The notes under the pieces: generated by a model
Seen by the model: only the letters and a program-made list of their open reading frames with translations
What the model was told of the DNA's origin: nothing
The model's database searches: none
Translations under genes and position numbers: made by a program
Part shown: positions 1,972 to 57,948 of the stretch, piece after piece
How the letters are laid out: each line of letters starts with the position of its first letter
Numbering within the stretch: position 1 is the stretch's first letter
DNA from: Parcubacteria group bacterium LiPW_15
Lineage (GTDB): Bacteria > Patescibacteriota > Minisyncoccia > UBA6257 > 2-01-FULL-56-20
Direction: 5' to 3'
Length of the DNA stretch: 64,000 bases
Assembly (NCBI GenBank): GCA_007375645.1
Contig: VMER01000003.1
Span: 81,553-145,552, forward strand

Positions 1972-3045
1972 TCACTCCAGTTTTTCTATCTTCACTCCAA
2001 TCAACCGAATAGCTTTGTGCTTCGGATTCTCGCGCTTGTCCAAAAAGGGCAAAAATAACTTCAGTGCCTCAAAGTTCAGCGTGCCAGAATCGGAGGCCGG
2101 TTCGGCAAGCGTGCGTGCGCGGGTCTTAGTGTCGAAATCCGAGAATCGCACGGTTATACCGATGGTCCGGTAGGTTTTAAACTCGCTGCGGTTAAGCCTC
2201 CCGATGACGTCTTCGGCCAGCTCTTTTATCCGCTCCACTATAAAATTAGCGTCTCGCCTGTCTTCATGAAATGTCTCTTGCTCGCCGATGGACTTGACCT
2301 CGTAATCATTACTAACCGGCGAGTCCGATTCCCCGCGCGCCTTGCGATAAAGATCTTCACCCCACTTTCCCATCAACTCTTTTGTTTTCGCGAGGGGCAA
2401 GGTTTTCAAATCTTTTATCGTTCGAATCCCGAGTTTGTTTAGCATGATTTCCGTCTTCGGCCCGATACCCGGGATCTTGCGGATATTCAAAGGCTCCATA
2501 AAACTTTCCGCTTCTTCCGGAAGAACAATAGTTAGTCCGTCCGGTTTTTGCATGTCGGAAGCAATCTTTGCGATAAGCTTGTTTGGCCCCAGGCCTATTG
2601 AGCAAGTTAGCCTTTCTCTGTCTTTCACCGCTTTTTTTATTTTCCTACAAAGCTCTTCCGCTTTTTTAAATGTCTTAGAAAAAGAAAGGTCGATGTATGC
2701 CTCATCAACACTTGCTTCTTCGACGAGCGGAGCGAATTCGCGGACTATCGCCATTATTTCTTCCGAGACGGCGCTGTATTTTCCCATGTGTCCGCCGGTA
2801 AAAACTGCTCCCGGCAGGCCTTTCTTTTTAGCCTCCTCCGAAAGACGCCAGGCGGCGGAGATGGGCAGGGCGGAGTGGATGCCGTATTTTCTTGCGGCGT
2901 AGTTGGCGGTAGAAACCACTCCCCGCCCCTTTCCGCCCTCCGGATCGGAACCGACCACAATAGGCCTGCCCTTAAAGCGCGGATTGTCCCGCTCCTCGAT
3001 GGCAGCGAAGAAAGCGTCCATGTCTAAGTGAGCGACAATTCTCAT
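1972..3045 (-). CDS. dinB: DNA polymerase IV (Y-family)
   Basis: MRIVAHLDMDAFFAAIEERDNP..; Y-family palm, fingers and little-finger layout; 357 aa. Confidence 0.85.
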   Translation of the reverse strand: MRIVAHLDMDAFFAAIEERDNPRFKGRPIVVGSDPEGGKGRGVVSTANYAARKYGIHSALPISAAWRLSEEAKKKGLPGAVFTGGHMGKYSAVSEEIMAIVREFAPLVEEASVDEAYIDLSFSKTFKKAEELCRKIKKAVKDRERLTCSIGLGPNKLIAKIASDMQKPDGLTIVLPEEAESFMEPLNIRKIPGIGPKTEIMLNKLGIRTIKDLKTLPLAKTKELMGKWGEDLYRKARGESDSPVSNDYEVKSIGEQETFHEDRRDANFIVERIKELAEDVIGRLNRSEFKTYRTIGITVRFSDFDTKTRARTLAEPASDSGTLNFEALKLFLPFLDKRENPKHKAIRLIGVKIEKLE

Positions 3046-3100
3046 AGCCCAATTCTACTACAAAAAGAAAACGGCCCCGGAGGGCCGCATCTTTACTCGT

Positions 3101-3673
3101 CTAGCGAGCAAATTCCAGAGTCGAAAGCACGGACCTAACAGTTGCAGCATCATCTCCAAAAAGCGGGCGAGGGTCGAACGAAGAATTTACGTCGCCAACC
3201 TTAAGATTGGCAATCAATAGATAGAACTTAAATCCTTTTCTCCAGGTGCTGTTGCCATAGAATTCATATTTTGCGGAACACGTACTTTGTTCGCACCCGA
3301 TGCCGGCCCATTCCAGCCCGCTCTCATTTCCGATAGAAATGTTCTTCAATACCTCTGCGGCTTTTGGAGCATTAAGGTTGCTCGCCACGGTGCGATCATA
3401 CTCACCGCGCATCTCATCAATCGTATAATCTTTCGCCACTGGGTTTATATCTTCCACTCCGAAAACAGCGGCATAACCGTTCTCGGTGACGAATCGAAGA
3501 ACGTCGCCATTAATATCCCAGGTGGGCGGATATTTGAGCTCGAATCCGTATTTTGAGTTTACATACGTACGTTCGTCTGCGCCCATTTCGTTAAGAGCCA
3601 GATACACTGCTACGCCGATAACCGCGACCACGCCAATAATTAAGAATATATTGACGGAACCTTTGTTTTTCAT
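3101..3673 (-). CDS. hypothetical membrane-anchored / secreted protein
   Basis: N-terminal TM segment (VNIFLIIGVVAVIGVAVYL), then a soluble domain (YGFELKYPPTWD..). A hairpin plus T-run terminator lies at 3055-3095. Confidence 0.5.
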   Translation of the reverse strand: MKNKGSVNIFLIIGVVAVIGVAVYLALNEMGADERTYVNSKYGFELKYPPTWDINGDVLRFVTENGYAAVFGVEDINPVAKDYTIDEMRGEYDRTVASNLNAPKAAEVLKNISIGNESGLEWAGIGCEQSTCSAKYEFYGNSTWRKGFKFYLLIANLKVGDVNSSFDPRPLFGDDAATVRSVLSTLEFAR

Positions 3674-3757
3674 AAGTTAAGTATGGAACCTTATCTTCAA
3701 AAAGCAATTCGCTCTATGTGCCCGGGGTGGAAGTCGACCCCGTACTTGCGCTAACTC

Positions 3758-4312
3758 TCAACTCGCCGGTTCCAATTCATCAAGATATTTTTCCGTGTCG
3801 GGGGTCTTCCCAGCAGCCAAAGAATCCTCTATATACTTTTTTATTTCGTCTAATTTTTTCTTGTCTACAAAATAAACTAGCACTCCGTTTTCGGTCATAG
3901 CGTCCAGGGCAGAATCAAAGCGTTCCGTCTCTATGGGGCGGACATCGCTTGTCGCATGCCATTCGCTGCGCCTCATCCCCCTGGACTCATCGCATTCAAA
4001 TTTGTCTCCCGGAAGGGTGTATATAATACCGCCCTTATCGCTGTCCCTGAATCTCTTTTCATCAGAGATAAGGATGTAGTATCTACCGCCCACTCTGCCC
4101 CTAATACTCCATGAATCATCAGGTCTGGGCCCGAGAAATGTAGCTGCAAATCCTTTATCTGGGGTTGCGAACAAAAGCTTTCCTTCTTGAAACCCGCGAG
4201 TCCGTTTATCATCCGGACTCAAAATTTCCAGATCTTCGGCCTGAGTGCCGTGATATAGAAATTCAGGTTTTTCCTTTTTAGGCTCTTTTTCTTGGCTCGT
4301 TTCTTTTATCAT
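3758..4312 (-). CDS. hypothetical protein (ORF trimmed to an internal ATG so it does not overlap tRNA-Leu)
   Basis: The ORF-track frame 3758..4435 overlaps tRNA-Leu(TAA) at its 5' end. The first ATG downstream of the tRNA is at 4312 (MIKETSQEKEPKK..LYHGTQAEDLEIL..). No family was recognised. Confidence 0.4.
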   Translation of the reverse strand: MIKETSQEKEPKKEKPEFLYHGTQAEDLEILSPDDKRTRGFQEGKLLFATPDKGFAATFLGPRPDDSWSIRGRVGGRYYILISDEKRFRDSDKGGIIYTLPGDKFECDESRGMRRSEWHATSDVRPIETERFDSALDAMTENGVLVYFVDKKKLDEIKKYIEDSLAAGKTPDTEKYLDELEPAS

Positions 4313-4316
4313 TCTG

Positions 4317-4398
4317 TGCCCGGGGCCGGACTCGAACCGGCACGCCTTTCGGCGCATCATCTTAAGTGATGTGCGGCTGCCAATTACGCCACCCGGGC
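4317..4398 (-). tRNA. tRNA-Leu(TAA)
   Basis: Reverse complement: GCCCGGGTGGCGTAATTGGCAGCCGCA-CATCA-CTTAAGA-TGATG-CGCCGAAAGGCG-TGCCGGTTCGAGTCCGGC-CCCGGGC-A. 7-bp acceptor stem, canonical anticodon loop CU-UAA-GA, long variable arm (class II), TTCGAGT T-loop. Confidence 0.8.
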
Positions 4399-4469
4399 AT
4401 ACGGGAAGTTTGACTGAATTCGTATCTGTTTTCAAGGATTGGCCGCCGGGTATATGCTAAAATCTTATT

Positions 4470-5327
4470 GTGAATTCCTTCTTCCCTTTTATTGCGGCGG
4501 TGTTGCAATCGGCGTCATACACGCTCGACAAAACAATACTCTCCGTCAAAAAGGTTTCTTTTAAAACCTACCTGGGAGTCAGCTTCCCACTTCTTTTTAT
4601 CGCGGACCTTATTATCTTCACCCTTTTCGGATTGAAAATAACTCCCGAGCTTTTCGCCGGAAACTTGGGCTGGCTCATGGGCGCGTCCATAATCCTCGCC
4701 ATCGGCTCAAATTTTATTTTCTACTTCGCCCTGGAGGAGGACACTCTCGGCGAAATTGAAACCTTCTCTCTTCTCGCCCCGATACCAACGATTATTTTTT
4801 CTAGTCTGGTTTTCCCGGACGAAAGAAATACGACTATCATCGTCCTCGCGCTCATCGCTTCCTTTGCGGTCGCGCTCACCCACGTGGAAAACTACCGGCT
4901 AAATATTAAAAAGAGGACGCTCATCATGCTCGGATGGTTTTTCTTGGCCATCCCGTTTAGCGCGGGAATCTCCAAAGTCCTTTTGGAAGTTTGGAACCCT
5001 ATCACCTTGGAACTCGTGAAGGACGGAATTATGGCCGCAGTCTTGGGCGGAATATTTTTTAAAGAGGCAAAAAAGGTCAGTAAGGAGAGCTTCCCGCTTT
5101 TTTTGGCGACCAACGGCATAAGCGCGATAGCCTGGATACTTTATTTCACGAGTTTCCAAAAGTTCGGAATCGTTTATACCGCGCTTCTTTTTTCCATCCA
5201 GCCCTCCCTAACCTATTTGTCCTCAGTGATATTCCTCAAAGAAAAATTGCGCTTAAAAAGAGTTGCCGCTTTCGCAGTGGTTCTTGCCGCCGCAGTTGCG
5301 GCGCAGATCTTAAAACCTTTGTATTAA
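4470..5327 (+). CDS. multi-pass membrane protein, possibly a DMT-superfamily (EamA-like) permease
   Basis: 285 aa with about 10 predicted hydrophobic helices, consistent with two EamA-like halves. Composition-based call only. Confidence 0.4.
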   Translation: MNSFFPFIAAVLQSASYTLDKTILSVKKVSFKTYLGVSFPLLFIADLIIFTLFGLKITPELFAGNLGWLMGASIILAIGSNFIFYFALEEDTLGEIETFSLLAPIPTIIFSSLVFPDERNTTIIVLALIASFAVALTHVENYRLNIKKRTLIMLGWFFLAIPFSAGISKVLLEVWNPITLELVKDGIMAAVLGGIFFKEAKKVSKESFPLFLATNGISAIAWILYFTSFQKFGIVYTALLFSIQPSLTYLSSVIFLKEKLRLKRVAAFAVVLAAAVAAQILKPLY

Positions 5328-5372
5328 ATTTTTTCGCTAAAAAGGCCCCTCCGCAGAGAGGCCTGGCAAGAT

Positions 5373-5714
5373 TCATTTCTCGATTGGCAGGAGTTTATGG
5401 CAGGCCTGTCCGCCATCAGCCGGCAGGTACTCTTTGCCGCAGGGGCACTTCCTGGGCAGGATGCCCATATCGTCGGCTACGTGATCCCGCCATTCCTTTT
5501 CGGCGTAGTCCGCGCCATCCCAATATCCCCGACTCTTCCAACCACAGGAACATTCCATCTGATCGTTCATGCCATCGGAAGTCATTGTCGGGACGTGCTC
5601 CGGCGCAGCGGCAGCGTTAATTGCATTCCATGCCTGGCGGTACTTTTCTCCGTTGGAGTAAGGGATATTCTTGAGAAACTGCTCCAGCGCCTCTCGAAAT
5701 TCCTTGACGTTCAT
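5373..5714 (-). CDS. hypothetical small Cys-rich (probable Zn-binding) protein
   Basis: 113 aa containing CSCGW...CPCGK...C. GGAGGTG ribosome-binding site 7 nt upstream of the ATG. A convergent terminator hairpin lies at 5336-5365. Confidence 0.5.
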   Translation of the reverse strand: MNVKEFREALEQFLKNIPYSNGEKYRQAWNAINAAAAPEHVPTMTSDGMNDQMECSCGWKSRGYWDGADYAEKEWRDHVADDMGILPRKCPCGKEYLPADGGQACHKLLPIEK

Positions 5715-6229
5715 TTCAGCGCACCTCCAGATTGCTTCTGAGCTAAGCTAGTGATAACACGCTCGAATAATCAAGTAAAGCCTACTCGAAGAAAGTGCCC
5801 CAGGAGAAATCCGGGTATGGACCCTCCAAATTGCCGAGTTTAAAAAATCTGCTATATTAAAAGCGGCGTGGTGCTGAAGTGCAACAGCGTGGGCCCGCAA
5901 ACCCACGATCCGCGTGGGGTTAAATGCCCCCGTCCACGCCTCCAATTTAAAAAACAAAACACCCTCGTTCGGGTGTTTTTCGTTTGAGGCCCGGGGAGGA
6001 GGCAGGGGCGAAGCCCCTGCACTTCCTCTATGTTTTGCTTCGCAAAAACAGATTATTGAAGGTCGGGATCTCACGCGCTCTCCGCCAGTTGGCGGATTGC
6101 TTTTCCGAACCCACGGTTCTGAATAATCTCCTCCTCGGGGAACCGAGCGCGGTTCCCCGACCCCCCTCCGCTGTTCGATTCCACGCAGCAAAAAGAAAAA
6201 CTCCCGACAAATGGGAGCTTTTCTTTTTG

Positions 6230-6301
6230 AGGCCCGGGTGGGAATCGAACCCGCGTATAATTCTTTTGCAGAGAATCGCCTTACCACTTGGCTACCGGGC
6301 C
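6230..6301 (-). tRNA. tRNA-Cys(GCA)
   Basis: Reverse complement: GGCCCGG-TA-GCCAAGTGGTAAGGC-G-ATTCT-CTGCAAA-AGAAT-TATAC-GCGGGTTCGATTCCCAC-CCGGGCC-T. Canonical loop CU-GCA-AA; discriminator U73 as expected for Cys. Confidence 0.8.
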
Positions 6302-6645
6302 AGCCTCAACTTTCTTAGATAGTTTAAGCCATTTGGCTTGTTTTTCAAACAAAAGAAAAGCGGCTCAGGGTTGAGCCGCCACGCCTCAGTCGTCAGTCGA
6401 AATGGAGTGCCCTGAATTCGTTGAGCTGGGCATCCAGGTCCAAGGACATGGAGTACACCTCCCATCACCCGCTGCATGTTCTTGCCGTCATATTCCGCAT
6501 ATACCTTGCGGACATCCTTCCCCGGCAGGACCGACACGGGATAGTCTTCATGATCGAAGGTGTCGCAGACCACAATCAGATGAGTCGCGCCATCCTTCTT
6601 CGCCTGATTAAGCCATCTCGCGATTGTCGTCTTGGTGGTCGCCAT
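6292..6645 (-). CDS. hypothetical protein; the 3' end of the ORF is doubtful
   Basis: Perfect SD AAGGAGGTG 5 nt upstream of the ATG at 6645. The ORF reads through two terminator-like hairpins (6333-6346, 6357-6376) and overlaps tRNA-Cys, so the true stop may lie upstream or there is a frameshift. Confidence 0.45.
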   Translation of the reverse strand: MATTKTTIARWLNQAKKDGATHLIVVCDTFDHEDYPVSVLPGKDVRKVYAEYDGKNMQRVMGGVLHVLGPGCPAQRIQGTPFRLTTEAWRLNPEPLFFCLKNKPNGLNYLRKLRLAR

Positions 6646-28502: not shown

Positions 28503-28532
28503 ATTAACTGCTTTGATATATCAAAGCAGTTA
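28503..28532. promoter_or_regulatory. 30-bp perfect palindrome TTAACTGCTTTGATA|TATCAAAGCAGTTAA at the 3' end of the TrpR-like gene
   Basis: Direct inspection; it shares the 22-bp core CTGCTTTGATATATCAAAGCAG with 28956-28995. Confidence 0.6.
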
Positions 28533-28946
28533 ATCAAACATCCAGATCCTGCCATATTTTGTCTTTTTGTAATGCCCGCTCCTCCTTGGCCTATTACCGG
28601 CTCCTGAGACATTTTTCTCCGCGCCGGTAACCTTCCGCTCTTGGTTCCCGAGATAGCTTTCGTAGGTTTTGCCATCCAACACTCTTTTGATACGGCTGAC
28701 TGTTTGGGAGGAAACCCAAAACTTTTTGCCTATATCCCGATAGCTATTCCCGGAAACAACAGACTCCAGCACGGCTACCCGCAACACGAGGTCATGCCGC
28801 TCTTTATCGGTCACAAACAATCGCAGAAGATCGGGGCGAGCAGAAATCATTTTCCAGCAGACAATTTCCCACTCCTTTCGCGAAGAAAAATCTTCCGGAT
28901 TCGGCAAATTGATTTTTCCGGCGCGCTGATTTCTTGTTCCTCCCAT
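28530..28946 (-). CDS. TrpR-like DNA-binding protein (YerC/YecD family)
   Basis: ERHDLVLRVAVLESVVSGNSYRDIGKKFWVSSQTVSRIKRVL matches the TrpR/YerC helix-turn-helix region. Confidence 0.6.
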   Translation of the reverse strand: MGGTRNQRAGKINLPNPEDFSSRKEWEIVCWKMISARPDLLRLFVTDKERHDLVLRVAVLESVVSGNSYRDIGKKFWVSSQTVSRIKRVLDGKTYESYLGNQERKVTGAEKNVSGAGNRPRRSGHYKKTKYGRIWMFD

Positions 28947-28955
28947 GCACTAATC

Positions 28956-28995
28956 ATACCACCACTGCTTTGATATATCAAAGCAGTGGTGGTAT
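28956..28995. promoter_or_regulatory. 40-bp perfect palindrome ATACCACCACTGCTTTGATA|TATCAAAGCAGTGGTGGTAT, 10 bp upstream of the TrpR-like start
   Basis: Direct inspection; the position implies an autoregulatory operator overlapping the promoter and ribosome-binding site. Confidence 0.6.
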
Positions 28996-40549: not shown

Positions 40550-40816
40550 TTACTTCTTGAGATCCAGCTTCTTCAAAAGCTTCTCGTACTTTTCCGGCTC
40601 TTTCTTTTTCATATAAGCCAGGAGCTTGCGGCGCTGACTCACCATCTTTAAAAGACCGCGGCGGGAATGATTGTCCTTGGCGTGCTTCTTCAAATGAGCG
40701 GTAAGCTCGTCGATCTGCTTCGAAAGTACCGCGATCTGAACACCGGCAGAACCGGTATCCTTATCATGCGCGGCGTGTTCACCTATTACTTTTGTCTTAG
40801 TTCGCTTGGAAAGCAT
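40550..40816 (-). CDS. rpsO: 30S ribosomal protein S15
   Basis: 89 aa from the ATG at 40816 (MLSKRTKTKVIGEHAAHDKDTGS..HLKKHAKDNHSRRGLL..). The ORF-track N-terminal extension is rejected. Confidence 0.85.
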   Translation of the reverse strand: MLSKRTKTKVIGEHAAHDKDTGSAGVQIAVLSKQIDELTAHLKKHAKDNHSRRGLLKMVSQRRKLLAYMKKKEPEKYEKLLKKLDLKK

Positions 40817-41102
40817 AGGCCTATAATACAGCGCTTTTGCTTTTTTTGCAAGTATTTTTAAAAGATCCGCCCCCAAATACGAAAATGGAGCCCCCGTGGG
40901 GCTCCGTGTGTTGGCTCGCTGAAGGCGAGCAGAATTTGATCAGCCGTAAGGCCGATTTTGGCTAGCTATTTTGGAATCATTGGGCTGACTTAATACTAGC
41001 ATCTAACCTGTCCGGCGCAATCGGGGGGGGTGTGGACAACTTTTTTGCCTAGCTCTCTCGGGAACGCGGTTCGCTTATCCTGCGAAAGCGCCCACTGCGC
41101 TC

Positions 41103-41122
41103 CCTGCCTGCCGGCAGGCAGG
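41103..41122. repeat. palindromic repeat copy A: CCTGCCTGCC|GGCAGGCAGG, followed 3 nt later by GGCGAAGCG
   Basis: Direct inspection; the same 20-bp palindrome occurs at 45298-45317 and a degenerate copy at 57682-57711. Confidence 0.6.
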
Positions 41123-41268
41123 TCGGCGAAGCGACCTTGGCGACACCTAGCCTAGCGGGGCTCCGAGGGCCCCTGCCGAAAACAAAACTCGTTGGGGGGG
41201 TTGGGGCAGAAAGCAAACTCGCGCGAAACGATCCTCCTGTCGCAAAATATTAGTGCTAGAATATATAC

Positions 41269-42153
41269 ATGGCTTCGCTTGATAGGCTTTTTACCGATTA
41301 TCTTAATTACCTGGAGATAGAGAAAAACCGCTCGGTTAAAACCCGGGAAAATTATGAACAGTACCTCAAGCGATTTTTCGCCTTCGCCAAACCGAAATCC
41401 CCCGAAGACATCACTGAGGAATCGGTTCGTTCTTTCCGGGTGGCGCTCTCGAGAGAAAACATCAAAAAAATAACCCAGGGCTACTACGCGATAGCGATAA
41501 GGAATTTTTTGAAATATCTCGCGAAACGCGACGTCCTCTCTTTAGCTCCGGATAAGATCGAACTCCCGAAAATGAACCGGCGCGACATTGAGGTTGTGGA
41601 ATACAAAGATATGGAACGCCTGCTCACGCCTCCCAAAGACCCGAATCTCCGGGACTTAAGAGATTGGGCGATACTCGAAACTCTTTTTTCCACGGGACTG
41701 CGCGTTTCCGAGATCTGCTCTTTGGACCGGTACCTGGACCTGGAACGCGGAGAGTTCTCGGTGCGCGGCAAGGGCGAAAAGATACGAGTCGTGTTCCTTT
41801 CCGACGGCGCACGGCGCGCGATTAAAATGTATTTGGACAAAAGAACGGATGCGGATCCGGCGATGTTTGTGAGCCTTACCAAGAATGGCGCTGTCTTGGG
41901 ACGCATAATCCCCCGCGCGGTGCAAAGACTCATCGATACCCGCGCCAAACGCGCCGGTATCGGCAAACACGTTCATCCCCACGAGCTCCGGCACAGCTTC
42001 GCGACAGACTTACTTATAAACGGAGCGGATATCCGGGCGGTGCAGGAGATGCTCGGGCATTCCAATATTGCGACCACGCAAATCTACACCCACCTGACCA
42101 ATAAGGAGCTCAAAGACGTCCACAAATCTTTTCACGGCAGACGGAGAAAATGA
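41269..42153 (+). CDS. tyrosine recombinase, XerC/XerD family
   Basis: N-terminal SAM-like domain; C-terminal R..HxxR..Y catalytic residues (HPHELRHSFATDLL .. TQIYTHL). Confidence 0.8.
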   Translation: MASLDRLFTDYLNYLEIEKNRSVKTRENYEQYLKRFFAFAKPKSPEDITEESVRSFRVALSRENIKKITQGYYAIAIRNFLKYLAKRDVLSLAPDKIELPKMNRRDIEVVEYKDMERLLTPPKDPNLRDLRDWAILETLFSTGLRVSEICSLDRYLDLERGEFSVRGKGEKIRVVFLSDGARRAIKMYLDKRTDADPAMFVSLTKNGAVLGRIIPRAVQRLIDTRAKRAGIGKHVHPHELRHSFATDLLINGADIRAVQEMLGHSNIATTQIYTHLTNKELKDVHKSFHGRRRK

Positions 42154-43568
42154 AGATTATTCCCGGCCTCAGAACCTTGCGCTCTGATTTTATTAGAACC
42201 GCGGCTTGGATCTTGTGCGCAGTCGCCATATTTGTTTTTTTGGTAGCCTCAGCAGAAGTTCTCCGCACGAATGCCATCTTTGATTATGGCGAGGGGGTTG
42301 TTTTGAATCTGGCCAAGAACTTAATGGACAAGGGCACATATTTTTTCGACATAAACCACCCGCCCTTTATTCACGGAGTTTATCCCCCAATTTTCCCCCT
42401 GCTCATTTCGCTCGCCTGGCACAGCGCTCCTCCGCTTTTGTTCGGACGCCTGCTTTCGTTTGTCGCGGCTTTGGCCTCGGCATTCGTCCTGTATAAATTG
42501 CTTCGGGGAAAAATTGCAGCCGAACCGTCGGCTCAGCTGGCAATCATATTTTTGACTTCTTGGTTCATGATCTCCTTCGCTCCAATTTTAAGAATAGATA
42601 CCTTGGCGGTATTCCTTAGCCTCGTGGGAATCTATTGTTTTTTAAATCTCGGCTCCCGCTTTTGGATATCGGGCCCGATATTCATTCTGGCTTTCTACAC
42701 CAAGCAAACCGCCATCATTGCTCCGATCGCCGTTCTTCTCTGCCTGGCGGCCGGTCAAAATTGGAAGAAACTCGGAGTTTTCTCGGCATCTTATCTTCTG
42801 CCGCTCGCCGTATCATTTTTCACAATAAACGCGGCGACTGCGGGCCAGTTTGCGTTGCACCTTTTTACCTATAACAACATCGCCCTCAACTGGACGCACA
42901 TCTGGGGTGGATATGCCGCTTTTTCCCTGAGCTGTCTCCCTCTTTTCGCACTGCTGGTTTTGAACTCCGGGAAAAAAGAACTTTCTTTCTTCCACATATA
43001 CTTTTTCCTGTCCTTTCTGTCGCTTTTTTCTTTCGCAAAACCGGGCGCAAGTTCAAATTACTTCATCGAACCCCTTGCCGCGCTGATCCTATTGATCGGT
43101 TACCTCTTATCTGCCGACCAAAGAAGCAGTGTCCTCGGAAAAAGTTATTTGCGGACGGAGATATTTTTTTCCGCGCAGCTTATCCTCTCCATGCTGGTAT
43201 TCTTTAATTTTCTCGCAAGCCCCTTAAGTCCGCCGAAACCCACCCAGGAAATGGTGATTCGGGAGATAAACAACGCGCCGCCGGGAGAAATATTGAGCGA
43301 GGAAATAGGATATTTGGTTCTGGCGGGTAAAGACGTGCATCTTGAACCCTTCCAATTCTCACGGCTCGCAAAAGAGGGGCGCTGGGATGACTCCCCGCTT
43401 ATAAAGGATTGTGAAGCCAGTAAATTCTCACTGGTCTGGGCGGGGCCGAGGATCTTGAGCTTGCCGAACTTGGCCGGATGCCTCAATCGATTCTACGCGC
43501 GCCAAACCCTGCCCGGAGGATATTTTCTATATACGAAGAAATCGGCTCCGCCCTCCGCTTCCTTATAG
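42150..43568 (+). CDS. large polytopic membrane protein, putative GT-C-fold glycosyltransferase (ArnT/PMT-like)
   Basis: 472 aa with at least 11 TM helices. Its start overlaps the xerC stop. Architecture-based call. Confidence 0.4.
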   Translation: MKIIPGLRTLRSDFIRTAAWILCAVAIFVFLVASAEVLRTNAIFDYGEGVVLNLAKNLMDKGTYFFDINHPPFIHGVYPPIFPLLISLAWHSAPPLLFGRLLSFVAALASAFVLYKLLRGKIAAEPSAQLAIIFLTSWFMISFAPILRIDTLAVFLSLVGIYCFLNLGSRFWISGPIFILAFYTKQTAIIAPIAVLLCLAAGQNWKKLGVFSASYLLPLAVSFFTINAATAGQFALHLFTYNNIALNWTHIWGGYAAFSLSCLPLFALLVLNSGKKELSFFHIYFFLSFLSLFSFAKPGASSNYFIEPLAALILLIGYLLSADQRSSVLGKSYLRTEIFFSAQLILSMLVFFNFLASPLSPPKPTQEMVIREINNAPPGEILSEEIGYLVLAGKDVHLEPFQFSRLAKEGRWDDSPLIKDCEASKFSLVWAGPRILSLPNLAGCLNRFYARQTLPGGYFLYTKKSAPPSASL

Positions 43569-44954
43569 GACCGGACAACTGAACCCGTAAGTGCATCCCG
43601 CTTCAAGCGCGAAACTCAAAATTACGAGCAGTAAGACTGCCGCCAATTGCCATGGCTTCTTTATTTTTTTCTCCAAGAGCCAGCAAAGGAGTCCCACGGA
43701 AAAAATAAGTCCCGGAAAATAATGATAGAGGAACGTGCTCCTGTTGACTGCGGAAAAATACGGCGCGAGCGAAGCAAAATATCCGGCGAAAAGCAGGAAT
43801 GGAATTTTGATATTTTCCCCATCCAGGATATCCCCTTTTTGTTTATACCGTTTGTAAAAACCCGCGAGCAACCAAAGAAATGCGTATAGGGCGGCCGCGG
43901 AACCCAGGAACCACACTGCGTAGTTTCCGACCAAGACCAGGTTGCCAGTTTTCTCTTTGGAGTCGAAATAGAGCATGGATTTTTTGGCGATAGGCCACTC
44001 GTACCAGCTGCTCTGCAGCGGATGATCTTTGGCTCCGTAAAGATAGCCGCTAAGGCCGGCATCTATGTCCTGCAGAAACGCCGCCCCGCCGTATAAAGTT
44101 TTTTTGAGCGCAGAAAAATTTTCGATGGAGATCCTGTCTTTTGCGCCCAAAAGTTTTCTCGCCAGATTTATATTGTCGGCAAGCGGAAACACCGCGAAGT
44201 TTAAAAGATATATAACGCAAAGCGTGGCAATGGCGGAGAAGAAAAACTTTATGGCTCGCGAAACCCTCTCCTTGTTCATTCTTGCCAAGATGAGATCGGC
44301 CACGATAACGCCCAAAAATGAAACGGTCATGAGTTTTACCGAAAAGGCCAGTCCCAGAAATACTCCGGCCAGGGCAACGTGTTTTTTCCCTTCAAGATAA
44401 AGCGCGAGCGCAATGAATCCGAGCGTCAAATACATGCCGTTCATAAGGATGAGCTTGGTCTCAAGGAGCAAGGCGTTGTCGAACACCAAGAACGCCGCGC
44501 CAAGAAGCGCGGTTATGTCGCTGAGTTTTAGAGTTTTCAAAAACACGAAAAAGGCCAGCGGGAGAAGAAGCCCGAAAAGCGAAGAAATTATACGAAGCAA
44601 AATGTAAGGAAATTTCCCGTATGTATCCGGCCGATAGGCCATGTCCACTTTAAATTCATTCCCGGGAGTGCTGGTAACGGTAAAAGAAACGAACTCCACG
44701 GAACCGGCGAACGGATTTCCCGAAGCCACGAGCGCAGCTCCATAGATCATCTTGCCGAGCGGAGGATGAATATCGAAGTACGCGACGTTCTTTGCGTAGT
44801 CGGCCGCGTAAGTGGAAAAGTGCGCCTCATCGAAAACCGGCTCTGCCGGATAAGAAGCGCGATAGAGATGAAGCCCTAAATTGATCAGGGTTAAAACCCC
44901 AAGAATTATTGCTATCGTCTTTCTGCTGAGTTCTTTGTGAATCCAAGAATTCAT
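43563..44954 (-). CDS. GT39 / PMT-family (dolichyl-phosphate-mannose protein mannosyltransferase-like) membrane glycosyltransferase
   Basis: N-terminal loop motif DEAHFSTYAADY..FDIHPPLGKMIYGA (the DE...HPPL signature). ATG at 44954, with a GGAG SD, chosen to avoid the tRNA overlap of ORF-track 43563..45152. Confidence 0.6.
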   Translation of the reverse strand: MNSWIHKELSRKTIAIILGVLTLINLGLHLYRASYPAEPVFDEAHFSTYAADYAKNVAYFDIHPPLGKMIYGAALVASGNPFAGSVEFVSFTVTSTPGNEFKVDMAYRPDTYGKFPYILLRIISSLFGLLLPLAFFVFLKTLKLSDITALLGAAFLVFDNALLLETKLILMNGMYLTLGFIALALYLEGKKHVALAGVFLGLAFSVKLMTVSFLGVIVADLILARMNKERVSRAIKFFFSAIATLCVIYLLNFAVFPLADNINLARKLLGAKDRISIENFSALKKTLYGGAAFLQDIDAGLSGYLYGAKDHPLQSSWYEWPIAKKSMLYFDSKEKTGNLVLVGNYAVWFLGSAAALYAFLWLLAGFYKRYKQKGDILDGENIKIPFLLFAGYFASLAPYFSAVNRSTFLYHYFPGLIFSVGLLCWLLEKKIKKPWQLAAVLLLVILSFALEAGCTYGFSCPVL

Positions 44955-44994
44955 AGTGTATTTTCTCCGCCTAAGTGCGTCCCGTACAAAGTGC

Positions 44995-45060
44995 TGGGGG
45001 CGGGAGTTGAACCCGCACGCCTTGCGGCGCTGGCTCCTAAAGCTAGTGCGCCCTCCCACC
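44995..45060 (-). pseudogene. tRNA-Leu(TAG)-derived remnant (anticodon arm to 3' end retained, D-arm and 5' acceptor lost)
   Basis: The reverse complement ..GTGGGAGGGCGCA-CTAGC-TTTAGGA-GCCAG..GCGGGTTCAACTCCCGC.. aligns to the 3' two-thirds of the adjacent tRNA-Leu but cannot form an acceptor stem or D-arm. Confidence 0.35.
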
Positions 45061-45065
45061 TCTTG

Positions 45066-45150
45066 TGCCCGGGGGGAGATTTGAACTCCCATGATCTTGC
45101 GATCGCTAGCTCCTAAAGCTAGTGCGTATAGCCAGTTTCGCCACCCGGGC
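45066..45150 (-). tRNA. tRNA-Leu(TAG)
   Basis: Reverse complement: GCCCGGG-TG-GCGAAACTGGCTATACGC-A-CTAGC-TTTAGGA-GCTAG-CGATCGCAAGATCATG-GGAGTTCAAATCTCC-CCCGGGC-A. Class II long variable arm. Confidence 0.8.
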
Positions 45151-45297
45151 AATATCCCACCTTGTTGTTCAATTTATAATTTACCACAGAAATGCCCGAA
45201 GGGTGGGAGGGTAAATCTGCCAACTTGCCCCGTCAAAGCGAAGCTTATTCGGGGTTTCGCCACCCCAGCACTTTGAACGGGATAAATTTGCCATTTC

Positions 45298-45317
45298 CCT
45301 GCCTGCCGGCAGGCAGG
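45298..45317. repeat. palindromic repeat copy B: CCTGCCTGCC|GGCAGGCAGG, followed 35 nt later by GGCGAAGCG
   Basis: Direct inspection; in the same orientation as copy A. Confidence 0.6.
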
Positions 45318-45533
45318 GCCACCTGCTCGCCTCGCTATGGCTTCGGCGAAGCGGGCTCACTTTGACCATTCTATCCCAAAAAAAGCGATAACAAAATCTG
45401 CCGACACGGAAAATTGACTTCTGCCGTAAATTCGATATATTACAGACAGCAACCTGCGCGAAAGGAGGCGCGCGTCAAAACCGACCCAAGCCCCGCCGAA
45501 CAACGCTCAAAAACCCGAATGGGAGAAACGACC

Positions 45534-57521: not shown

Positions 57522-57575
57522 TGGTGCCGGGCCCCAGAGTCGAACTGGGCACGCCTGCCTCTTCCAAAGGCAAAT
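57522..57575 (-). pseudogene. tRNA 3'-half fragment (anticodon-arm-like region, T-arm, acceptor 3' strand and CCA) with no matching 5' half
   Basis: The reverse complement ..TGCCT-TTGGAAG-AGGCA-GGCGTG-CCCAG-TTCGACT-CTGGG-GCCCGGC-A-CCA has a perfect T-arm plus acceptor plus CCA, but no complementary GCCGGGC 5' strand or D-arm is found within 100 nt. Confidence 0.35.
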
Positions 57576-57681
57576 TGGACTATATCACCTCCCTTGTCAG
57601 CGCTCATGCGGACAGTCGGGAGTCGGGCGCTTCGCCTAAATCATTTCTGATCGGCTACTCCTTTAAAGGATAGTCTCTACA

Positions 57682-57711
57682 CCTGCCTACGCTTTCGCTC
57701 CGGCAGGCAGG
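57682..57711. repeat. degenerate copy C of the CCTGCC..GGCAGGCAGG palindromic repeat (left arm interrupted), with an inverted GGCGAAGCGCC 60 nt away
   Basis: Direct inspection. Confidence 0.45.
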
Positions 57712-57948
57712 CCTTCCACCTATACAAATGGTTAGCTTGCTTGCAATCCGTAGCTTTAGCGAAGGATTGGCTCGGGATTGTTTGCCTTGCGGCAAGTTTT
57801 CCCCGAATTCACCCGATTTTTCAATCCGCATTTCTGCGGAAAGCCCCAAAGATTATTTAGGGCAGCGCTCTACCGATGAGCTAGCCCGGCAGCTAATTGC
57901 TCCCACACAGGATAACAAAGCTGCTTTTACATTTCAACAACAAATAAC

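Follow-up and report, generated by a model that had tools for sequence, protein, structure and literature searches.

What do two identical palindromes on either side of a recombinase gene stand for? In the 64,000-nt stretch of Parcubacteria group bacterium LiPW_15 analysed here (contig VMER01000003.1, positions 81,553 to 145,552 of the forward strand; hereafter the window), two copies of the 20-mer CCTGCCTGCCGGCAGGCAGG, which we call PAL, enclose a tyrosine recombinase gene of the xerC type and two glycosyltransferase (GT) genes. A first-pass annotation of the window had placed two readings side by side: the copies could be the attL and attR scars of an integrative cassette carrying xerC and glycosylation genes, or members of a dispersed family resembling repetitive extragenic palindromic (REP) sequences with a preference for tRNA neighbourhoods. 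We found that the second reading is nearer the truth. Each copy is probably a member in its own right of a family of 20-bp insertions, perfect palindromes that are widely dispersed, non-coding, non-autonomous and selfish in the manner of REPs, Rickettsia palindromic elements (RPEs) and mitochondrial GC clusters. The family is indeed dispersed, is enriched near tRNA genes and has sites inside tRNA genes and their fragments; however, it is not genome-specific, it also occurs in protein genes, and a third tRNA link reported for the window was a misreading.

The copies lie, as annotated, at 41103-41122 (copy A) and 45298-45317 (copy B). No other match with up to three mismatches occurs in the window, and the chance expectation is zero (0 matches in 100 shuffles). 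The two halves, CCTGCCTGCC|GGCAGGCAGG, form a perfect palindrome of the structure (CCTG)2.5(CAGG)2.5, so that neither copy has a strand. Copy A stands in the 452-nt spacer between the divergent genes rpsO and xerC, 146 nt upstream of the xerC ATG; copy B has a rearranged tRNA-Leu locus on one side and, on the other, the promoter (sigma-70-like) of an open reading frame (ORF) of 75 aa. Counting its C/G flanks, copy B is a palindrome of 22 bp, and its RNA fold has a 9-bp stem and a 4-nt loop. Identity between A and B is limited to 22 nt (TC plus the palindrome); local alignment of the spacers finds nothing more, and the flanks are unrelated. Both PALs recur in L171, a second, contiguous megahit assembly of this genome that matches the window at 100% over 14.3 kb, and A and B are therefore not assembly artefacts. 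Logan contigs (SRR8863432; starts of L001 and of L159/L168) end exactly at copy A and overlap in the palindrome only, where the megahit contig continues through; the cause may be lower coverage at the hairpin or a heterogeneous number of repeat units. A scan for intrinsic terminators, defined by a hairpin and a U-tract, flagged neither copy, T-runs are absent beside both, and Rfam searches of the two spacers at permissive thresholds gave sub-threshold chance matches only (best 15 bits, E > 0.1).

Outside the window, PAL sites were found by the exact 20-mer only, the genome and metagenome figures here and below are those among the matches listed, and taxon names are those of the record titles. 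A scan for the palindrome gave at least 120 loci in GTDB species genomes, each from a different genome record. The titles name candidate phyla radiation (CPR) lineages, Bacteroidota (six isolates, megabase contigs), Omnitrophota, Planctomycetota, Verrucomicrobia and the Planctomycetes-Verrucomicrobia-Chlamydiae (PVC) group, Elusimicrobia, Thermodesulfovibrionales, Delta- and Gammaproteobacteria, Bdellovibrionales and Chloroflexi. PAL was also present in at least 120 contigs of JGI and ENA metagenomes and in 35 viral stretches of IMG/VR, whereas two control palindromes (the halves turned inside-out, and a composition-matched tetranucleotide palindrome) had no viral match each. The median GC content of PAL loci is 42-43% as against 80% for PAL itself, which makes chance occurrence of such a 20-mer in AT-rich loci negligible. 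Flanks are unrelated between sites, with no conserved "master" context. INPHARED phages and PLSDB plasmids held no full PAL, only partial matches at chance level. No paper with the 20-mer, its 14- or 15-mer cores or its peptide reading LPAGRQ was found in the literature searched, and keyword searches gave analogies only. PAL is apparently an undescribed 20-bp element that recurs without a single base change at hundreds of unrelated sites, in phage contigs as well as in no fewer than ten bacterial phyla. Its presence in cultured Bacteroidota (Winogradskyella echinorum, Flagellimonas yonaguniensis, Longitalea luteola, Aquiflexum lacus, Aestuariivivens sediminis and Agriterribacter humi) makes it accessible to experiment.

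Where an empty site is available for comparison, PAL is a discrete unit that was gained as +20 bp without target duplication. A tRNA-Met(CAT) gene with syntenic flanks lacks PAL in L174, L175 and L176 and is filled in the related phage contigs L146 and L123. There PAL stands in the variable loop, between ...CCACGAGG and TCGCCGG, as exactly +20 bp with no duplication, and the filled gene folds as tRNA-Met in ARAGORN with PAL as a long variable arm. Paralogous empty copies within single genomes are provided by repeat units in L005 and L006 and by an intact tRNA-Ser next to a PAL-bearing fragment in L084. A hairpin family of the phage contig L142 has five empty members and others that are filled at the loop/3'-stem junction.

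These and other sites show that PAL lands in loops or loop/stem junctions of foldable DNA. It occupies the centres of pre-existing palindromes (L080, CCCGGTTTC|GAAACCGGG; L026, L020, L068, L149), the centre of PAL itself (L019, L043, L022, L126/L148) and terminator-like hairpins. Within tRNA sequences it is found at the junction of D-loop and 3' D-stem (L016, L038, L086, L100, L153, twice in L252, L258), at the anticodon stem/loop junction (L107), at the T stem/loop junction (L214) and in the variable loop (L146). A tRNA gene lies within 200 nt of 12 of the 127 genome-set and 7 of the 127 metagenome-set sites among the matches listed; the tRNA density of the loci themselves would predict about 3-4. 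Of 294 listed sites, 14 (an undercount) have a tRNA arm motif at most 45 nt away, where 5 are expected. One architecture recurs in unrelated genomes (L031, L258, L084, L252, L016, L038, L100, L153): a 5' tRNA half that ends at the anticodon loop carries PAL at its D-loop/3' D-stem junction and is followed, 15-60 nt downstream, by an intact gene for that isoacceptor. The fragment in L214 is a 3' T-arm piece, and the one in L153 adjoins a large serine recombinase. Copy B, beside a split tRNA-Leu, is the window's version of this tRNA-half theme.

Long ORFs also read through PAL. Among the matches listed, all 12 proteins identified by Pfam or through the Protein Data Bank (PDB) read it as LPAGRQ, for which the probability would be about 6e-6 were the frame random. 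They are FtsK, S6, ScpB, GatB, RmlB, ATP synthase alpha/beta, SecA, PheS, a P-type ATPase, PurH, a class II aminoacyl-tRNA synthetase and a GH115 protein (loci L014, L048, L054, L105, L022, L218, L261, L188, L272, L216, L284 and L209). Compared with PDB homologues of GatB and RmlB, LPAGRQ falls in variable loops, and the gene of RmlB, a dTDP-glucose dehydratase, contains a nested double PAL. In 15 of 16 coding cases, counted by eye, a purine immediately precedes PAL. If PAL is mobile, it would be a natural marker of insertion tolerance, with 7-residue loop insertions in AtpA, SecA, FtsK, GatB, PheS and others, and it would account for short LPAGRQ indels and for odd tRNAs with long variable arms in the annotation of metagenome-assembled genomes.

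Around the ascertained PALs (1.18 Mb) there are 12 more exact copies, 14 with one mismatch and 20 with two, as against about zero for the controls. Since such local clustering is common, two copies 4 kb apart with a degenerate third, as in the window, are typical. The arms vary by whole CCTG units, and PAL decays by point mutation into degenerate copies. Its flank bases show a weak preference in both data sets, for A/G at -1 (T depleted) and for T/G at +1 (A depleted). PAL often lies within short tandem "word" repeats, frequently heptamers, that form long imperfect hairpins (L155:3916-4142; L122:10450-11800; L102, L051, L059, L036), and one viral contig has a terminus made up of ten or more 21-nt PAL-like units in tandem. 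The contig L239 (32% GC) has four exact PALs within 1.5 kb (987-2469), directly upstream of ftsK-...-recA (2585-6643). Copy A of the window is likewise a few kb from ftsK, recA and xerC, a likeness that is probably coincidence.

We propose that PAL would be moved in trans, as a single-strand hairpin, into transiently single-stranded and folded target DNA. Single-strand "peel and paste" chemistry would agree with insertion into hairpin loops and with the lack of a duplication. Chemistry of this kind by HUH/Y1 enzymes, as in IS200/IS605 and the REP-associated tyrosine transposases (RAYTs), might act on folded lagging-strand or phage single-stranded DNA; we put this forward tentatively, as a possible but rather unlikely route. 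We consider it more doubtful still that extruded hairpin tips, when broken, would take up the self-complementary 20-mer as a blunt duplex, a route that would also allow an occasional +21. Local effects of PAL, as an RNA hairpin or through insulation between divergent promoters, would be secondary. Taken as a whole, the proposal has a little less than an even chance in our estimate: PAL would be the smallest mobile DNA yet seen, a 20-bp palindrome without coding capacity, inserted by machinery acting in trans, without target duplication, into folded single-stranded DNA loops, spread identical through at least ten phyla and phages, and colonising tRNA genes and essential proteins in one frame. 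A 20-bp sequence would then act as a horizontally spreading parasite across phyla, and a widely shared or transferred enzyme that recognises a bare hairpin would have to be sought. If mobility were confirmed, the identity across phyla and the size would be remarkable.

Several observations weigh against reading PAL as a dispersed selfish insertion. No mobilising enzyme was found and no protein family recurs near PAL: all-vs-all BLASTP of 3,194 ORFs from the 155 loci listed linked no gene family to it, the largest clusters being structural genes of related viral contigs, and no gene recurs within about 4 kb. The PAL-rich contigs L239 and L155 carry ordinary chromosomal (FtsK, RecA, EF-P) or phage genes and no candidate enzyme. 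One sequence at low copy across phyla is unlike the lineage-specific, high-copy REP/RAYT systems, and their GTAG or CGTC tag is absent. An in-frame PAL needs a net gain of 21 nt, whereas the empty-site comparisons give 20, and the exclusive use of the LPAGRQ frame is unexplained. An enrichment of 7-nt repeats in the flanks, considered below, hints at a second mode or a different mechanism. The sites were ascertained by the exact 20-mer only, and the figures for GTDB (at least 120) and metagenomes (at least 120) are minimums that do not fix the copy number per genome or the taxonomic range. Finally, copy A is perfect in a relative where its flanks are 80% identical, which is expected in about 1% of cases by chance and could mean a host function.

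Such a function would make PAL a cis-acting site, for example an operator or a dif-, parS- or KOPS-like (FtsK-orienting polar sequence) site bound by a conserved dimeric protein (of the Xer/FtsK machinery, for instance), or else a conserved RNA hairpin, in either case kept by selection. We regard this as improbable. In its favour, PAL is perfect about 130-146 nt upstream of xerC in two lineages with a spacer of 80% identity, each 10-bp half-site corresponds to one helical turn, and a four-PAL cluster stands just upstream of ftsK in L239. The half-site GGCAGGCAGG(G) also resembles KOPS, the sequence of which in E. coli is GGGNAGGG. Yet this 20-mer stands inside tRNA genes, inside 12 different proteins and inside other copies of itself; related phages differ in whether they have it; and neither a gene family linked to it nor an Rfam family matching either spacer was found. 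Nor does PAL resemble a dif site, which has about 28 bp with two arms around a 6-8 bp spacer and is single-copy at a GC-skew switch: PAL has no likeness to Xer-binding arms and occurs at least twice here and hundreds of times elsewhere. The dif-like sites that the first-pass annotation had advised looking for are at chance level in the window by a pattern search of the ATAA-N6-TTAT type, and the cumulative GC skew is monotonic through it, so that no terminus lies here.

The 7-nt flank repeats would be accounted for by a DDE transposon whose terminal inverted repeats (TIRs) begin CCTGCCTGCC and which makes a 7-bp target duplication; excision or internal deletion would leave 10 + 10 bp, and PAL would be its footprint or a solo-end pair. 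The halves are inverted as abutted TIR tips would be. A flank repeat with at least 6 of 7 positions matching is enriched at exactly k = 7, with 15 of 167 sites and 4 of 127 in the replicate among the matches listed as against about 0.4-1 expected, and the heptamer arrays around many PALs could be repeated duplications. However, any insertion point in a period-7 array looks like a 7-nt duplication, a footprint would differ in length, and the comparisons of filled and empty sites give +20 bp and no duplication. Nowhere in 1.2 Mb of loci did PAL halves form the termini of a long element; all solo halves there were degenerate PALs. We therefore give this origin, too, a low probability.

The cassette with which we began is very improbable. 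It would require that a circle with xerC and the two GT genes had integrated by a tyrosine-recombinase crossover within PAL, leaving one PAL at each end. The gene content had been described correctly: xerC (41269-42153, plus strand; 294 aa, with Pfam Phage_integrase and SAM-like domains) is followed by a gene of the GT-C type (42150-43568, plus strand; 472 aa, by Pfam), the start of which overlaps the xerC stop codon, and by a convergent PMT/GT39 gene (43563-44954, minus strand; 463 aa, real start at 44954, by Pfam). Identical copies do flank a tyrosine recombinase gene, with a tRNA-Leu remnant at one end, and the GT genes are an indel relative to the related contig L167. For the GT-C protein, identity to the nearest homologues reaches only 37-39%. 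The recombinase has XerC, XerA and XerD as its best NCBIfam models; it passes XerA (235.7 bits, cut-off 220) and scores below the own cut-offs of XerC and XerD. It has no paralogue in the window, and its synteny with rpsO-pnp-recA-ftsK is kept in the relative. We take this to be a housekeeping-type gene that behaves like the host Xer and not like an element-borne integrase.

Relatives from other samples, recovered by exact-protein look-ups with S15, speak against the cassette. The strains L162 and L164 have the same spacer, with copy A as a 24-nt variant that has one extra CCTG unit on one arm. A more distant groundwater lineage (L158 = L167 = L172; xerC 93.5% identical in amino acids, recA 97% identical, spacer 80% in nucleotides) keeps the exact PAL about 128 nt upstream of xerC. 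In L167, tRNA-Leu(TAG) follows directly after xerC, without the GT-C and PMT genes and without a second PAL, and the DNA upstream of this tRNA-Leu is unrelated to the window. Since L167 has copy A and xerC and lacks the GT genes and copy B, the indel is the GT pair, bounded by the xerC 3' end and tRNA-Leu, and not the segment bounded by PALs; copy A predates it. The outer flanks of the supposed cassette are not joined in L167 around one repeat copy, as they would be at an att site. The att interpretation of the first-pass annotation is therefore rejected, and its suggestion that the 41.1-45.3 kb segment be compared in relatives led to an indel of the two GT genes only.

The remaining evidence points the same way. 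Only 22 nt are common to A and B, and the symmetric core would give no directionality. Tyrosine recombinases are found near PAL in 2 of 155 other loci among those listed, and PAL elsewhere lies inside essential genes and tRNAs. The copies are best seen as passengers that do not delimit a mobile unit, and 20 bp is short for RecA-dependent recombination between them; the tempting story of a Xer-borne glycosylation cassette is removed. Copy A is an old insertion in the xerC-rpsO spacer, intact in the diverged relative. The spacer is bordered on its other side by rpsO (40550-40816, minus strand; ATG-started, 88 aa, S15). Its G runs (41023-41030 and 41195-41201) vary in length among strains, for example 8 versus 6 in L162/L164, and together with the unit differences in copy A this is simple-sequence length variation in a promoter-proximal spacer. 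L167/L172 (4460-5119) have, between the PAL spacer and rpsO, an ORF of 219 aa with a perfect TTGACA-17-TATAAT promoter; it is missing from the window lineage (40817-41268), an indel of about 0.9 kb.

A de novo origin, as a recurrent inverted junction of CCTG/CAGG microsatellites, or a library or assembly artefact might be suspected from the tetranucleotide arms that vary by whole CCTG units and from the Logan contigs that break at copy A, but it is hardly credible given that the inside-out halves have 0 viral matches versus 35, that the host loci are AT-rich and without CCTG microsatellites, that PAL occurs in isolate genomes, complete chromosomes and contigs whose names (tig..., contig_...) suggest other assemblers, that it is kept at an orthologous site in diverged strains and in frame in essential genes, and that degenerate copies exist.

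Two annotations of the window were corrected in the course of this work, and both concern the surroundings of PAL-like sequences. The first is a nested tRNA-Leu locus (44992-45269, minus strand), recognised by ARAGORN, Rfam, its sequence and its RNA fold. An outer tRNA-Leu(TAG) is split in its D-loop into a 5' fragment of 16 nt (45269-45254) and the remainder (45050-44992), with the acceptor pair GCUGGGG/CCCCAGC. Within the insert of about 200 nt lies a second tRNA-Leu(TAG) (45150-45065), complete and distinct from the outer one, together with the inverted repeat ACCCTCCCACC/GGTGGGAGGG and copies of a direct repeat, CAAG(A)GGTGGGA. In the predicted fold (z = -3.7) the acceptor, anticodon, variable and T arms of the outer gene are all formed, and its D-loop holds the inner cloverleaf. 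Copy B had been said to abut a tRNA-Leu and its remnant; it is indeed near, 28 nt from the 5' fragment, whereas the intact gene is 148 nt away and the "remnant" is part of the split outer gene. The tRNA-Leu of L167 is a third allele, which resembles the variable arm of the outer gene. Copy B sits in variable DNA upstream of a disrupted and replaced tRNA-Leu. A search of JGI metagenomes for its empty site, using a flank pattern with a variable gap, gave no match at all, and exact-protein look-ups for the 75-aa ORF, a methyltransferase and a 101-aa ORF returned the same genome only. Beyond this locus, the region from 45.9 to 48 kb, and on to about 49.7 kb, has a GC content of 59-61% as against about 49% elsewhere. 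The ORFs at 45.9-48 kb (381 and 180 aa) have no Pfam or NCBIfam match and are followed by two genes resembling pilins of type IV secretion systems. This GC-rich side of tRNA-Leu, which is not in L167, may be a genomic island.

The second is a tRNA-Phe(GAA) gene (57522-57890, minus strand) with a group I intron of 294 nt (57858-57565) between U33 and G34. The intron matches RF00028 with 56 bits (gathering score 50), and the exons (57890-57859 and 57564-57522, minus strand), when spliced, are a canonical tRNA-Phe(GAA) by ARAGORN. The unspliced gene was missed by ARAGORN and revealed by the Rfam intron model only. What had been taken for an orphan tRNA 3' half beside a third palindrome is the 3' exon of this gene. 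A PAL-like hairpin (copy C) does exist where a degenerate, inverted copy had been noted, at 57682-57711 on the minus strand; its place is inside the intron, in a peripheral extension (P6 region) that forms part of a 72-nt insertion in the Rfam group I alignment, and its membership in the family is unproven. It reads CCUGCCUGCCGG-AGCGAAAGCGU-AGGCAGG, with a GAAA-capped insert at its centre; as CCTGCCTGCCGG-AGCGAAAGCGT-AGGCAGG, 12 + 7 bases match PAL with 11 nt between. Local alignment finds no homology among A, B and C beyond the palindrome. Nested or centrally altered PALs are frequent at other loci, as copy C might be, and it is possibly, at most, a decayed or nested relative of PAL in an intron hairpin.

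The orientation of the copies had been judged from the flanking sequence GGCGAAGCG, which has three occurrences in the window, one beside each copy, at distances of 2 nt (A), 27 nt (B) and 46 nt (C). A count of three is ordinary (reached in 19 of 100 shuffles), and the unusual part is the co-location with the three copies. The motif is part of a different small hairpin each time: GCTTCG-G-CGAAGC at B, GGCG-AAG-CGCC at C, and at A a long hairpin, GGCGAAGCGG...CCGCTTCGCC, which is present in the relative L158 and of which the window retains one arm. With a perfect palindrome that has no orientation of its own and a motif in different hairpins, "co-oriented" is weakly grounded.

Two other features of the window were noticed. 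Positions 3717-3745 (versus 4315-4343) are a tRNA 3'-end-like sequence, 76% identical to the 3' end of tRNA-Leu(TAA) and about 600 nt from that gene, which may be another tRNA remnant or an att-type duplicate. A second perfect palindrome, ACTGCTTTGATATATCAAAGCAGT (24 nt), is identical at 28507-28530 and 28964-28987 and flanks a 138-aa gene for a TrpR-like helix-turn-helix protein (28530-28946, minus strand). An IS200-like unit was considered for this pair at 28.5-29.0 kb and rejected, as the enclosed gene is TrpR-like and there is no transposase; the pair is probably an operator pair of the TrpR-like protein or a pair of hairpins, and not a transposon.

PAL can be compared with several known systems. 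Like PAL in the window, att and dif sites are short repeats with a tyrosine recombinase nearby and a tRNA gene that is partly duplicated, but the empty-site comparison fails for the segment bounded by PALs, PAL has no Xer-arm similarity and it has many copies in unrelated contexts. The Rfam comparison places only copy C in a structured RNA, the true group I intron, and neither of the A and B spacers. Miniature inverted-repeat transposable elements (MITEs) such as Correia/NEMIS are non-autonomous and moved in trans, as PAL would be; they have at least 50 bp, TIRs and target-site duplications, whereas PAL has inverted-repeat halves and an enriched 7-nt flank repeat, but empty sites without duplication and no parent element that we could find. 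IS200/IS605 elements share with PAL the lack of target duplication and act via single-strand hairpins at the lagging-strand template; they differ in having two different ends and a target tetranucleotide, where PAL is a single symmetric 20-mer with no conserved flank motif.

In form, PAL is like REPs and bacterial interspersed mosaic elements (BIMEs) with their RAYTs (Y1 HUH enzymes). These are GC-rich palindromes of 20-40 bp, mostly intergenic and without target duplication, with a presumed single-strand hairpin substrate. They stand alone, cluster, or alternate with other small hairpins in mosaics of the kind seen in the xerC-rpsO spacer. PAL, as a 20-bp perfect palindrome with a 9-bp stem, is such a hairpin. 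REPs, however, are lineage-specific, number in the tens to hundreds in a genome, are tagged by GTAG or CGTC and are extragenic by definition, whereas PAL is one untagged sequence across phyla and phages, apparently at low copy (at least 120 GTDB loci, each in a different genome record), and also lies in 12 proteins and several tRNAs.

Palindromes inside genes have a precedent in the RPEs, reportedly described from Rickettsia by Ogata and colleagues in 2000. RPEs, too, are inserted in genes and read in a fixed frame, as LPAGRQ is in 12 of 12 proteins among the matches listed. They are 100-150 bp long, related to RPE-1 to RPE-8 and confined to the Rickettsia lineage, whereas PAL has an unrelated sequence, is 20 bp long (7 codons including the junction base) and crosses phyla. 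PstI palindromes are said to flank tRNA genes in Neurospora mitochondria (Yin, Heckman and RajBhandary, in 1981). Repetitive hairpin-forming elements have also been described in sponge mitochondria (PMC2800124). Together with the GC clusters of yeast mitochondria, these are short GC-rich palindromes in AT-rich genomes that often lie near tRNA genes and in introns, nested and non-coding like PAL; they are organellar, species-specific and high in copy number, whereas PAL is borne by bacteria and phages and is identical across distant hosts. PAL departs from the defining features of REPs (tag, copy number, lineage specificity, extragenic position), of MITEs (size, parent) and of RPEs (size, lineage), and we file it as a variant of the class of small selfish palindromic repeats.

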